Below, one piece after another: positions 2,986-5,980 of a stretch of 5,980 nucleotides of DNA. Within the stretch, counting starts at the first letter, position 1. Every line of letters starts with the position of its first letter. The notes beneath the pieces were generated by a model. That model ran no database searches and was not told the DNA's origin. It saw only the letters and a program-made list of their open reading frames with translations. The translations under genes and the position numbers were made by a program. This DNA is from a virus. The stretch lies in IMG/VR virus record IMGVR_UViG_3300045988_012479, one strand, 5' to 3'.

Positions 2986-3225
2986 ATGGAACATCTGTAT
3001 TACGGCATTTGGGACAACGTGGCAAAATGCTACGCATGGGTAGGCGAAAGCAAAAACGACGGGACTTTTGCACGAATGTGCAACACAATGGCAAAGGACA
3101 AAGGAACCTTCATCGGGCAGAGTCCGCAGGACTACACCGGCTTTAAACTGGCAACGTTTGAGGATGAGCTTGGAACGTTCACGAACGACAACGAAAAGGT
3201 GTGGGAGGGCAAGCCGAATGAATAA
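2986..3225 (+). CDS. Hypothetical 79-aa protein with a triplicated GTF motif (DGTFARM / KGTFIGQ / LGTFTND)
   Basis: SD GAGGAG (2971-2976) lies 9 nt upstream of ATG 2986. Its stop TAA 3223-3225 overlaps the next start (ATGAATAA). No recognisable family. Confidence 0.55.
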   Translation: MEHLYYGIWDNVAKCYAWVGESKNDGTFARMCNTMAKDKGTFIGQSPQDYTGFKLATFEDELGTFTNDNEKVWEGKPNE

Positions 3226-3616
3226 GCGATACGAGGAAGGGCGAGAGCCCTTCTTTTCAAATTCAGGCGAAAAACTGCGAAGACAGTACATCTGGACAAA
3301 GGACGAAAAAGGGAAAGAAGTGTTGCAGGAAACCGAGCCAATTGACATCCAGCAGGAAATCGAAAGCTATGCGGACGAATGTGACATCAAAAACATTGTT
3401 CGGAAAGCGAGTTTCGACCCGGAATTCCTGAAAAGCTTGTCACAAGGTGCTATGGAAGGCGTAGAAATAGACGTGACCGAATGGCCGCAAAACATCCACG
3501 AGTATCACCAGATGATCGCGACCGCACAAGTAAACGCAATGAAGCTCAAAGAGCTGGAAGAACAAAGCAAAGCACAGAAAGAAGAATCAGCAGAAAGGAG
3601 TGAAACGGCAGAATGA
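3218..3616 (+). CDS. Acidic 132-aa protein, putative internal scaffolding protein (VP3-like), translationally coupled to VP1
   Basis: SD GGGAGGG (3203-3209) lies 8 nt upstream of ATG 3218. Highly acidic (E/D-rich), about 130 aa, and located directly upstream of the major capsid gene with an ATGA stop/start overlap at 3613-3616, as expected for a gokushovirus VP3 scaffold. The assignment rests on size, charge and position only; the track's longer start at 3068 overlaps the previous gene. Confidence 0.6.
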   Translation: MNKRYEEGREPFFSNSGEKLRRQYIWTKDEKGKEVLQETEPIDIQQEIESYADECDIKNIVRKASFDPEFLKSLSQGAMEGVEIDVTEWPQNIHEYHQMIATAQVNAMKLKELEEQSKAQKEESAERSETAE

Positions 3617-5277
3617 ACAGAAACAACGAAAGACACTTTCTGAACGTACCGCAGATGCACACGAGCAGAACGAGATTCAACCGAGACCAGACAATCCTAA
3701 CCACATTCGACAGCGGCAAGCTCATTCCGTTCTTTGTAGACGAAGTGCTGCCGGGCGACACGTTCCAGGTAGACACCAGCGCAATCATCCGCATGACTAC
3801 ACCGAAGTATCCGGTCATGGACGATGCATTCATTGACTTCTACTACTTCTACTGTCCAAACCGAATCCTATGGGACGACTTCAAGAGATTCATGGGAGAA
3901 GCAGACCAAACAGCATGGATGCCAACCAAAACCTACAGCGTGCCGAAAATCAAAATCGAAGCAGGTAAAGCGTCACCAAAAATTCCGGGGCCGAAAGAAA
4001 AAAGCATTCTCGACTACATGGGAGTGCCAACGAAAATCGAAAACGAATTCAAAATAAACGCGCTGCCAGTCCGTGCATATGTCATGATTTGGAATGAATA
4101 TTTCAGAGACCAGAACGTAGAAAATGCAGCAGTACTAAAAACAGACAGCGAAGAAGTCACATACAGCGACAACGAACCAGAAAACGTAGAAAGAACACTT
4201 AGAGAAGCGGTGACGGGTGGTCGCTGTCTTCCCGTAAACCGTTTCCACGACTACTTCTCAAGTTGTTTACCTTATCCGCAGCGCGGACCGGAGGTAACAG
4301 TACCAATGACAGGTAATGCACCAGTATTCGGATACAGCACCATCCAAGACAGCGAAAAATTAACAGATAAAATAATTCTAAACCAACCGTGGCCAACAAA
4401 CAGCACAACGGATTTTTATAACACGGAAAAAGGAGGAAAACTGACAGGAAAAGGCGCACTGAATGGAGGTAGCTACACTGCAGAAGCATTCCTAAAAGCA
4501 GACCTCAGCGCCGTAACCGCAACAACCATCAACGAACTGCGAAACGCAATTGCAGTGCAGCAGTACTACGAAACAATGGCACGAGGCGGAAGCCGATACC
4601 GTGAACAGGTACAGGCACTATGGAATGTAACCATCAGCGACAAAACGGCACAGATTCCGGAATATCTTGGCGGTGGCCGCTATCGCGTCGGAATGAACCA
4701 GATCGTACAGACAAGCGGACAGCAGAGCGAGAACGATACACCTATTGGCGAAACCGGTGCAATGTCAGTAACGCCAATCAACGAAAGTTCCTTCACGAAG
4801 AGCTTTGAAGAACACGGGTTTGTAATTGGTGTGTTGTGCGTGCGCCACAGCAGAACGTACCAGCAGGGACTTGAACGTTTCTGGAGCAGAACCGACAGGC
4901 TGGACTATTATGTACCTCAGTTTGCAAATCTGGGCGAACAGCCTGTAAAGAAAAAAGAAATCATGTTAACCGGCACGAAAACTGATGAAGAAACATTTGG
5001 CTACCAAGAGGCCTGGGCCGATTACAGAATGAAGCCGAACCGAGTGAGCGGCCTCATGAGAAGCAACGCAACAGGCACGTTGGATTTCTGGCACTATGCA
5101 GACAACTACTCAACTACGCCTACACTGTCTCAGGAATGGATGGCAGAAGGCAAAAAAGAAATTGAAAGAACACTCATCGTACAGAATGAAGATCAATTCT
5201 TCGGTGCAATTCGTGTAGCAAACAAGACCACACGTTGCATGCCCTTGTACAGTGTACCGGGCTTGTACAAACTGTAA
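3613..5277 (+). CDS. Major capsid protein VP1 (Microviridae F-like, Gokushovirinae-type)
   Basis: 554 aa. The N-terminal region HFLNVPQMHTSRTRFNRDQTILTTFDSGKLIPFFVDEVLPGDTF ... FYYFYCPNRILWDDFKRFMGE is the characteristic gokushovirus VP1 signature (PGDTF, the FxVPxRxxW..F..F.GE block). The size matches VP1 with its hypervariable insertion loop. SD AAAGGAG at 3593-3599. Confidence 0.96.
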   Translation: MNRNNERHFLNVPQMHTSRTRFNRDQTILTTFDSGKLIPFFVDEVLPGDTFQVDTSAIIRMTTPKYPVMDDAFIDFYYFYCPNRILWDDFKRFMGEADQTAWMPTKTYSVPKIKIEAGKASPKIPGPKEKSILDYMGVPTKIENEFKINALPVRAYVMIWNEYFRDQNVENAAVLKTDSEEVTYSDNEPENVERTLREAVTGGRCLPVNRFHDYFSSCLPYPQRGPEVTVPMTGNAPVFGYSTIQDSEKLTDKIILNQPWPTNSTTDFYNTEKGGKLTGKGALNGGSYTAEAFLKADLSAVTATTINELRNAIAVQQYYETMARGGSRYREQVQALWNVTISDKTAQIPEYLGGGRYRVGMNQIVQTSGQQSENDTPIGETGAMSVTPINESSFTKSFEEHGFVIGVLCVRHSRTYQQGLERFWSRTDRLDYYVPQFANLGEQPVKKKEIMLTGTKTDEETFGYQEAWADYRMKPNRVSGLMRSNATGTLDFWHYADNYSTTPTLSQEWMAEGKKEIERTLIVQNEDQFFGAIRVANKTTRCMPLYSVPGLYKL

Positions 5278-5287
5278 GAAAGGAGGA

Positions 5288-5313
5288 AGGCCGGAGAAAT
5301 CCGGCCTATTTTT
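5288..5313 (+). terminator. Hairpin plus T-run between VP1 and VP2 (intrinsic terminator/attenuator)
   Basis: aggccgga (5288-5295), a GAAA loop, tccggcct (5300-5307), then aTTTTT (5308-5313). It lies 11 nt after the VP1 stop; the strong SD AGGAGG (5281-5286) sits just 5' of the stem and the VP2 ATG is at 5316. Confidence 0.65.
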
Positions 5314-5315
5314 AA

Positions 5316-5980
5316 ATGAGCGTTTTATCAACAATCGGTGGAATAGCAGCAAAAGGCTTACAGTGGGCAGCGGCAAATCCACAATTAGTCACAGGAGCAA
5401 TGACACTGGCGGGAAAAGGTCTACAAGGACTATACGGACAGCAAAGCCAAAGCCAAAGCCAAGGGTACAACCAAAGCCAAAGCCAAGGAGGAGGACAAAG
5501 CAGCAGCAGCAGCCAAGGTGGAACCAATGACCAATTAATCCAAGACTATCTTAAACAGTTCTACAACTGGCAGAGCGGGCAAAACGAATTCCAGAGCAAA
5601 ACAAACCGACAAAACATGTTAATGCAAATGGGTTACAACACCCTAGGCGCAATCCAACAGGGAATCTATAACCAAATTGAACGCAATGCAGCCATGAACT
5701 ACAACAGCGCAGAAGCTCTGAAAAACAGAGAGTTTCAAGAACGCATGTCAAGCACAGCATACCAAAGAGCAGTTGAGGATATGAAAAAAGCCGGAATAAA
5801 TCCTATCCTAGCATACGCACAAGGTGGAGCGAGCACACCGGGAGGCTCAGGAGCAACCATCACAGGCGCAAGCATGGGACTACCGTCCGCAAGTGCACTA
5901 GGCGTGTCAACAATGTCAGGTAACGTACCAAACAGCTACTACAGCCGGTCAGAAAGTCAAAGCCAATGGTATCAGCTCGC
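5316..5980 (+). CDS. Minor capsid / DNA pilot protein VP2 (N-terminal 221 codons; the ORF runs off the window end and continues at bases 56-245)
   Basis: ATG 5316. It has a glycine-rich, hydrophobic N-terminus, an SQ/G low-complexity linker, and the conserved block FQERMSSTAYQRAVEDMKKAGINPILAYAQGG typical of Microviridae VP2/H-like pilot proteins. It follows VP1 directly, as in gokushoviruses. Confidence 0.88.
   Translation, partial: MSVLSTIGGIAAKGLQWAAANPQLVTGAMTLAGKGLQGLYGQQSQSQSQGYNQSQSQGGGQSSSSSQGGTNDQLIQDYLKQFYNWQSGQNEFQSKTNRQNMLMQMGYNTLGAIQQGIYNQIERNAAMNYNSAEALKNREFQERMSSTAYQRAVEDMKKAGINPILAYAQGGASTPGGSGATITGASMGLPSASALGVSTMSGNVPNSYYSRSESQSQWYQL
5442..5517 (+). repeat. Microsatellite-like tract inside VP2: (CAAAGC)3 ... 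(CAAAGC)2 ... GGAGGAGGA ... (CAG/AGC)5
   Basis: Hexanucleotide and trinucleotide tandem repeats read directly from the sequence; they encode SQSQSQGYNQSQSQGGGQSSSSSQGG. Confidence 0.8.

Follow-up and report, generated by a model that had tools for sequence, protein, structure and literature searches.

A hairpin at the VP1/VP2 junction of gut gokushoviruses as a candidate leaky terminator and bridge of a split ribosome-binding site

Split ribosome-binding sites, in which a hairpin stands between the Shine-Dalgarno (SD) sequence and the start codon, were reportedly described in bacteriophage T4 by Nivinskas et al. in 1999 and by Malys and Nivinskas in 2009. In T4 genes 38 and 25, folding of the hairpin reduces the spacing from 22 to 5 nucleotides (nt) and from 27 to 11 nt, respectively; the need for the hairpin was demonstrated there by mutations and by probing of the structure, and only one clade has this arrangement (PMC3014915). 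The two T4 hairpins are not described as terminators in that review. In the microvirus phiX174, four leaky Rho-independent terminators (TJ, TF, TG and TH), placed after genes J, F, G and H, grade the abundance of transcripts (10.1101/2020.03.05.979765). Here we analyse the junction between the genes for the major capsid protein VP1 and the minor capsid or DNA pilot protein VP2 in the IMG/VR virus record IMGVR_UViG_3300045988_012479, where a single hairpin may act both as a leaky terminator and as the bridge of a split VP2 ribosome-binding site. The whole stretch of 5980 nt (hereafter the window) is a complete circular genome of the gokushovirus type of microvirus, 5925 nt long, with positions 5926-5980 identical to 1-55 (a 55-nt assembly overlap). 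A preliminary description of this DNA had invoked T4 gene 38 as a precedent, which agrees with the published spacings given above for genes 38 and 25. Our literature search found no description of this junction in Microviridae.

The VP1/VP2 intergenic region of the window is 38 nt long and all its elements are on the + strand. Direct reading of the sequence confirmed to the base the order SD, hairpin, ATG that had first been noticed. The SD sequence AAAGGAGG (5279-5286, core AGGAGG at 5281-5286), the proposed 5′ half of the split VP2 ribosome-binding site, is separated by one unpaired A from a hairpin whose stem begins 10 nt past the VP1 stop codon. The hairpin consists of a 5′ arm AGGCCGGA (5288-5295), a 4-nt GAAA loop (5296-5299) and a 3′ arm TCCGGCCT (5300-5307), with eight base pairs in the stem (six G-C and two A-T), and is the proposed terminator stem and bridge. 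It is followed by a U-rich tail, ATTTTTAA (5308-5315, T run 5309-5313), which is also the 3′ part of the spacer between SD and ATG. The hairpin lies between the end of the SD at 5286 and the VP2 AUG at 5316. An in-frame TAA (5313-5315) immediately precedes the ATG at 5316-5318, so that 5316 is the sole possible start of the VP2 open reading frame (ORF), and in GenBank entry KX513868 the annotated VP2 begins at the equivalent ATG. The in-frame ATG that follows, at 5400, was considered as a VP2 start and rejected: AGGAG stands just 2 nt ahead of it, and relatives appear to vary mainly at third codon positions from codon 2 onwards (judged by eye, not measured).

The calculated free energy of the duplex with the anti-SD sequence is -11.9 kcal/mol at the upstream site against +3.6 kcal/mol in 5308-5315, and by these energies there is no second SD-like sequence in 5308-5315. 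AGGAGG is thus the only strong SD ahead of VP2 and, at 29 nt from the ATG in the linear sequence, is too distant, as the preliminary description had argued; its estimate of about 9-10 nt for the folded spacing also stands, with 9 unpaired nt counted. RNAfold predicts a free energy of -15.3 kcal/mol for the hairpin alone, pair probabilities of 0.94-1.0 in contexts of 120-300 nt, and an AUG (5316) that is 0.85-0.91 unpaired in A/U-rich surroundings. A search of Rfam gave no family matching at the junction.

This arrangement resembles that of T4 genes 38 and 25 in several respects. The linear distance from SD to AUG is too long in all three cases (22 and 27 nt in T4, 29 nt here), the hairpin lies wholly within the spacer, and the folded spacing is workable, with the 9 nt counted here falling inside the T4 range of 5-11 nt. 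Each structure is kept in one clade and absent from distant relatives, and each is placed at an intercistronic junction of a structural operon. Unlike its T4 counterparts, the hairpin studied here has the full anatomy of a terminator following a highly expressed gene, and its U tail doubles as the 3′ spacer. The two systems also differ in their setting, here a single-stranded DNA (ssDNA) phage of the Microviridae with a probable Clostridia host, and in the kind of evidence, which includes mutations and structure probing for T4 whereas it is comparative for the present junction.

We compared the junction across related genomes. The close set comprised 80 IMG/VR contigs with a VP1 71-100% identical to that of the window, 78 of which had a readable junction (32 distinct junction sequences). 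A protein homologue search with VP1 gave only close relatives (at least 78% identity), and outgroups were obtained by tblastn against GenBank phages and by locus searches seeded with the VP1 of gokushoviruses at a greater distance. All 78 close junctions have the form TAA-GAAAGGAGGAA-stem-loop-stem-CTATTTT-ATG. Their intergenic columns are conserved at 94-100%, compared with mostly about 0.5-0.8 for the third positions of the last 50 VP1 codons, indicating that this non-coding stretch is under purifying selection. The upstream AGGAGG (94-100% in the 78 relatives) is as conserved as first and second codon positions, while the third positions of VP1 have drifted. The same order of SD, hairpin, tail and ATG recurs at 53-58% VP1 identity (AAAGGGGGAA-AGCCCGGGG-caaaa-CCCCGGGC-ATATTTTT-ATG) and again at 44-47% (GAAAGGAGGAA-GCCGGG-gcaaaa-CCCGGC-TATTTTAGTAT-ATG), and the T-rich tail is kept in all relatives that have this arrangement.

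The hairpin itself is conserved and its stem covaries, two properties that the preliminary description had singled out for a check in related genomes. In the close set 99% of the stem cells are paired, compensatory double changes occur in three of the eight pairs (C-G to G-C twice, A-U to G-C), there are no one-sided changes, none of 500 shuffles reaches the covariation score, and pairing is lost when the partner strand is slid. In a wider set of 105 distinct junctions, reaching down to about 44% VP1 identity, double changes occur in seven of nine stem pairs; again 0/500 shuffles reach the score and the slid controls collapse. The five internal pairs of this wider set contain 12 G-U cells versus 2 mismatches, the other 58 unpaired cells being in the outermost and the two loop-closing pairs, and this excess of G-U over mismatches points to a structure on the + (mRNA-sense) strand. 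Among the relatives we counted 51 distinct hairpin sequences, all base-paired, with stems of 6-13 bp and loops of 3-7 nt. A GNRA tetraloop as a specific feature was ruled out, with loops that include GAAA, GAGA, AAAA, CAAAA, TTTT, CAATA and GCAAAA; since the loop sequence varies freely, the helix alone matters. On this comparative evidence the hairpin is a genuine selected structure. A scan of the window for terminator-like elements returned it as the only match on the + strand, in a scan that as a whole was at chance level (9 found versus 8.8 expected), and the case for a non-chance hairpin therefore rests on conservation and covariation.

We then examined on which side of the hairpin the SD is located in 324 distinct gokushovirus VP1/VP2 junctions, with starts called by ATG-first rules and an SD defined as a 5-mer match. 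Among the junctions with a hairpin, the SD is upstream only in 165, downstream only in 36, on both sides in 2 and on neither in 8. Where the SD is upstream, the hairpin ends 4-13 nt from the ATG (mode 8), apart from one outlier at 184 nt that probably reflects a mis-assigned start; where it is downstream, this distance is 14-46 nt. The duplex energies give the same picture. When the hairpin is no more than 13 nt from the ATG (n = 165), the median anti-SD energy is -11.8 kcal/mol upstream of the stem and +3.6 kcal/mol in the downstream spacer; when it is 14-60 nt away (n = 43, including the E. coli phage EC6098), the medians are +0.7 kcal/mol upstream and -9.0 kcal/mol ahead of the ATG. There is one SD per junction, on one side of the hairpin, and its side is tied to the distance between hairpin and ATG. 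The upstream motif occurs as AAAGGAGG in 82 junctions, AAAGGGGG in 53 and AAAGGAGA in 25, and all three variants pair with the anti-SD. Taken with its conservation at the level of coding positions and its loss where the SD is downstream, this supports the earlier assignment of the upstream AGGAGG as the SD of VP2.

Five loci of the 45% identity tier (L332, L335, L338, L344 and L353) have exchanged one layout for the other. They carry a homologous hairpin with CACAAAAACAA in place of the upstream SD (GAAAGGAGGAA in relatives) and an AAAGGAG 5-7 nt ahead of the ATG; some of them share the VP2 N-terminus of their relatives, and their VP1 is 86-97% identical to that of genomes with an upstream SD. 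These swap variants keep the A-rich tract upstream of the stem but have lost GGAGG, so that a possible terminator A-tract and the SD can be told apart. Where inserts of 60-130 nt follow the VP1 stop codon, the SD-hairpin unit adjoins the ATG and not the stop, which makes a mechanism dependent on that stop codon less likely. Other layouts were also found: stop-SD-ATG without a hairpin in L081 (TAAgggggtgagaatATG) and in the nearest outgroups L121, L124 and L327 (TAAggaggtg...ATG); stop-terminator-SD-ATG in EC6098 (GGCCTCtgcgGAGGCC-TTTTTTT-cATGAGGTGAaattATG), MG945531 and others; and overlaps of the TAATG type in distant environmental gokushovirus lineages.

Several further observations concern the sequences around this junction. 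The inserts mentioned above, in L266, L279, L298, L313, L314 and L316, contain repeated CTCAGCTGAG palindromes, within about the first 130 nt past the VP1 stop. In L188-L241, recovered at 56-59% identity with EC6098 VP1 as query, a hydrophobic ORF of about 20 codons (MALVIWLAVVGTVVIFALGQ-like) with its own SD is found between VP1 and VP2 (in L188, for example, within about the first 75 nt past the VP1 stop). VP2 N-termini are mosaic relative to VP1, with 48 different 8-residue N-termini in 77 junctions (VP1 identity at least 68%); L338 and L339, for instance, share 97% of VP1 and have unrelated VP2 starts. The conserved junction of 38 nt has the look of a boundary at which modules have recombined.

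The spacing between the SD and the ATG is also maintained across the clade. In 163 relatives the linear spacing is 28-39 nt and the folded spacing 6-14 nt, with a median of 9 and an interquartile range of 9-11. The other genes of the window have GGAG-type SD sequences 5-11 nt from their starts, VP2 being the single exception; this indicates that the host uses SD sequences. In the canonical junctions of relatives the median distance from SD to ATG is 6-7 nt. The gap of 38 nt between the VP1 stop and the VP2 start differs from the overlapping or adjacent codons of termination-reinitiation coupling. Altogether, a split SD for VP2 is well supported by the comparison of junctions, and all those points of the preliminary description that are open to sequence comparison were borne out.

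The same hairpin has the features of an intrinsic terminator: a GC-rich stem, a short loop, a U-rich tract directly 3′ of it (U-A-UUUUU-AA) and a position past the end of a gene on the coding strand. Its predicted strength is moderate. Two promoter-like sequences on the + strand precede the structural block, TTGACA-17-TAAAAT at 1655-1683 and TTGAAA-17-TATAAT at 1870-1898, each with a TG and with 11/12 matches (consensus match only), and a third promoter-like site is found at 2107, upstream of the structural genes. The promoter scan of the window revealed no such site between the hairpin and VP2 or VP4, the replication initiator gene that follows; VP2 and the essential VP4 would then depend on read-through, and the terminator must be leaky. 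A second terminator-like element was found by RNAfold past VP4, also on the + strand. It has an 11-bp stem (1276-1286 paired with 1298-1308) followed by TTTTAGTTTT up to 1318, and was missed by the scan because of its long loop; the folded 74-nt stretch 1262-1335 has a free energy of -20.2 kcal/mol and also holds a small 3-bp hairpin. This element is probably the end of the transcription unit.

Clear terminators occur at the same VP1/VP2 junction in EC6098 and in other gokushoviruses. EC6098, MG945531 and the prophage of Oscillibacter sp. PC13 share with the window a GC hairpin followed by a T run and a single SD for VP2. Unlike in the window, their SD comes after the terminator, 4-8 nt from the ATG, whereas here the SD comes first and the hairpin is inside the ribosome-binding site. 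As in phiX174, the putative terminator follows structural genes including that of the major capsid protein, and with promoters upstream, constitutive in phiX174, the downstream genes would need read-through. Unlike the phiX174 terminators, whose activity has been measured, the one described here is predicted, and phiX174 belongs to a different subfamily with another gene order. A ribosome halted at the VP1 stop was considered as a conserved anti-termination device and rejected: the distance from stop to stem is fixed only in the close clade, and within the 53-58% tier it varies between about 7 nt and over 130 nt.

These results suggest the following model. The hairpin and its U-rich tail would form a leaky intrinsic terminator that also stabilises the 3′ end of the abundant VP1 message, the same task as that of the phiX174 terminators and of those at other gokushovirus junctions. 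On read-through RNA, the folded hairpin would take 20 nt out of the spacer and set the SD AAAGGAGG about 9 unpaired nt from the VP2 AUG, giving a split ribosome-binding site like those of T4 genes 38 and 25. Read-through RNA would be the only source of VP2 and of the downstream VP4, and VP2 initiation would be deliberately sub-optimal, keeping both at levels well below VP1. A role of the terminator in capsid protein stoichiometry is plausible; the number of about 12 VP2 copies per virion given in the preliminary description would be an analogy with protein H of phiX174. We assign a probability of roughly 0.55 to the reading of the hairpin and tail as both leaky terminator and bridge of a split VP2 ribosome-binding site. 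The broader proposal, that a large clade of gut gokushoviruses, which probably infect Clostridia, has fixed a single hairpin as a dual device, terminating transcription and bridging the SD of the next gene with the U tract as spacer, is put forward more tentatively, at a little under even odds. In such a device, read-through and the initiation of VP2 and VP4 would be physically coupled within 38 nt. One possibility is that a 30S subunit on the SD, 1 nt from the base of the stem, or a ribosome that halts at the end of VP1, 10 nt before the stem, modulates formation of the hairpin and thereby termination, making a translation-sensing attenuator without a leader peptide.

Several points weigh against this dual function. 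The U run is broken by an A where it meets the stem, and a score of the d'Aubenton-Carafa type is borderline, at -1.6 to +10.3, although both the interrupted run and the score fit a leaky terminator. In the naked-RNA prediction by RNAfold the unpaired probability of the SD reaches only about 0.35, owing to weak wobble pairs between GGAGG and UUUUU or to pairing of the SD with sequence upstream of it. The folded spacing, taken as 9 unpaired nt plus the width of the helix end, is 2-5 nt above the 5-7 nt typical of these genomes. The association between SD side and distance is strong in a 2x2 Fisher test (p = 2e-30), a statistic that ignores phylogeny; the swap variants resemble a single type of junction that recombination has spread, approximately one evolutionary event, and most of the loci come from one metagenome project (3300045988). 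We infer from comparative evidence alone both the use of the upstream SD by the 30S subunit across the hairpin and, on the side of transcription, termination by RNA polymerase, the read-through fraction and the effect on the VP1:VP2 ratio.

Each half of this model could in principle suffice by itself. If the hairpin were a terminator only, VP2 would start through the A/U-rich leader AUUUUUAA or by re-initiation of ribosomes from VP1, and AGGAGG would be kept for another purpose such as pairing of its A-tract with the U tract. Such a role would account for the canonical terminator shape, for the terminators at this junction in many relatives and for an AUG that is about 90% unpaired in an A/U-rich context; GGAGG is moreover able to wobble-pair with the U run, and the A-rich upstream tract is kept in the swap variants. 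It is nevertheless unlikely, because an SD precedes all the other genes of the genome and because initiation in the phylum of the Clostridia, the likely hosts, is strongly SD-dependent. The motif is specifically AAAGG(A/G)G(G/A) rather than merely purine-rich and its variants preserve pairing with the anti-SD, and where a downstream SD is present GGAGG is lost while the A-tract stays, leaving exactly one SD per junction. Re-initiation tied to the stop codon is further disfavoured by the SD-hairpin unit following the ATG, not the VP1 stop, where inserts are long. That the hairpin is a translational element only, a structural bridge and perhaps a nuclease barrier with no useful termination and a T-rich tail that is plain unstructured spacer, appears more doubtful. 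The short, interrupted U run and the borderline score fit this idea, as do the T4 gene 25 and 38 hairpins, not described as terminators (PMC3014915), and the position of VP4, downstream and with no promoter-like site of its own, would make strong termination harmful. The 51 hairpin versions, however, all preserve a GC-rich stem of 7-11 bp directly followed by 4-6 T, and the hairpins of relatives with a downstream SD persist, with longer T runs, although they have no bridging role; the same logic of leaky termination is used by phiX174.

A function at the level of DNA has also to be weighed, with the hairpin acting in the packaged + strand ssDNA, for priming of the complementary strand or another step of replication or packaging. 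The origin hairpins of phiX174 and G4 lie after the major capsid gene, and the covariation with tolerance of G-T on the + strand, a further point against our interpretation, would suit ssDNA and RNA equally well. In phiX174 and G4 the origin elements are larger and multi-hairpin, with a conserved loop or recognition sequence, and are indispensable for replication. None of this applies to the junction hairpin, which has just one short stem, a loop whose sequence is free and a T tail, in a region of 38 nt, and which is dispensable for replication, given that L121, L124 and L327, all close outgroups, lack a hairpin at the junction. The 830-nt non-coding region of the window, with its TTCAACA repeats and 12-bp hairpin, is a better origin candidate, and the reciprocity of SD positions would be left unexplained. 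We consider a DNA-level role very improbable.

The host of the window clade can be approached through its relatives. GenBank relatives of the window genome are gokushoviruses from human and pig gut. A prophage scan of genomes with the window VP1 gave no matches; when genomes were scanned with a VP1 alignment, integrated relatives turned up on long Clostridia contigs, with VP1 identities of 37-45%. The hosts of these integrated relatives include two isolates, Oscillibacter sp. PC13 and Muriventricola aceti, as well as metagenome-assembled genomes (MAGs) of Peptostreptococcaceae, Lachnospiraceae and Christensenella; the order SD before hairpin was found in none of them. Together with the strong SD sequences and extended -10 promoters, they make a Bacillota host likely for the window clade, an assignment that is indirect because the integrated relatives are only 37-45% identical and lack the SD-before-hairpin order. 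In addition, L380 (CALBJK010000280.1, 5840 nt), a genome-sized contig with an SD-hairpin-ATG junction, has been assigned to a Prevotella MAG by binning. This contig is probably the genome of a free phage that was binned wrongly; the binning, if right, would contradict the argument from an SD-dependent host, since Bacteroidota largely do without SD use.

If the model is true, the T4 genes would be joined by only a second well-supported natural family of split ribosome-binding sites bridged by a hairpin, the first found outside T-even phages and the first whose bridge doubles as a terminator. Two regulatory layers that set capsid protein ratios would be packed into 38 nt of a 6-kb genome that has hardly any non-coding space. 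In practice, VP2 starts of this kind will be scored as having no SD by gene callers and ribosome-binding-site models whose search extends only about 15 nt from the start. The natural versions of the same hairpin with the SD before or after it also provide a ready set of constructs on the accommodation of a helix in the SD-AUG spacer, in Gram-positive hosts.

All genes of the window are on the + strand. VP1 (554 aa, 3613-5277, stop TAA at 5275-5277) was identified from the ORF list, from Pfam PF02305 on its homologues and from matches to annotated gokushovirus VP1 in GenBank, and is the most abundant protein. VP2, read from its translation, runs from ATG 5316 to 5980 and onward over the circular junction, where its 3′ end (56-249, stop TGA at 247-249) was read from the sequence. 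Its stop codon overlaps the GTG start of VP4 at 246 (GTGA), with a double SD AGGAGGCGGAGGA at 227-239, and VP2 and VP4 are tightly coupled in translation. The VP4 ORF (GTG 246-1265), which matches annotated VP4 genes, has an SD GGAGG 7 nt ahead of its GTG. The non-coding region of 830 nt comes after VP4. Next are a gene of the peptidase M15 kind (about 2107-2508), a number of small ORFs, one of which (2847-2969) is basic and VP5-like, and VP3 (ATG 3218-3616).

A few minor features of the window deserve mention. The VP1 start overlaps the VP3 stop (ATGA at 3613-3616), and the spacing of the VP1 SD is relatively long, with GGAGT 11 nt from ATG 3613 (3594-3615). VP2 contains a low-complexity Gln/Ser/Gly stretch QSQSQSQGYNQSQSQGGGQSSSSSQGG, derived from CAAAGC repeats (5440-5520). 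In the large non-coding region TTCAACA is present nine times in about 170 nt (1317-1483), and TCAACA ten times in 1266-1520, of 12 occurrences genome-wide; the array resembles iterons or an origin region. A perfect 12-bp inverted repeat, ACCATTTTCGGG-AGTT-CCCGAAAATGGT, at 1560-1587 in the same non-coding region, is preceded by an A run and is called by the scan as terminator-like on the minus strand; it may be an origin or packaging hairpin.

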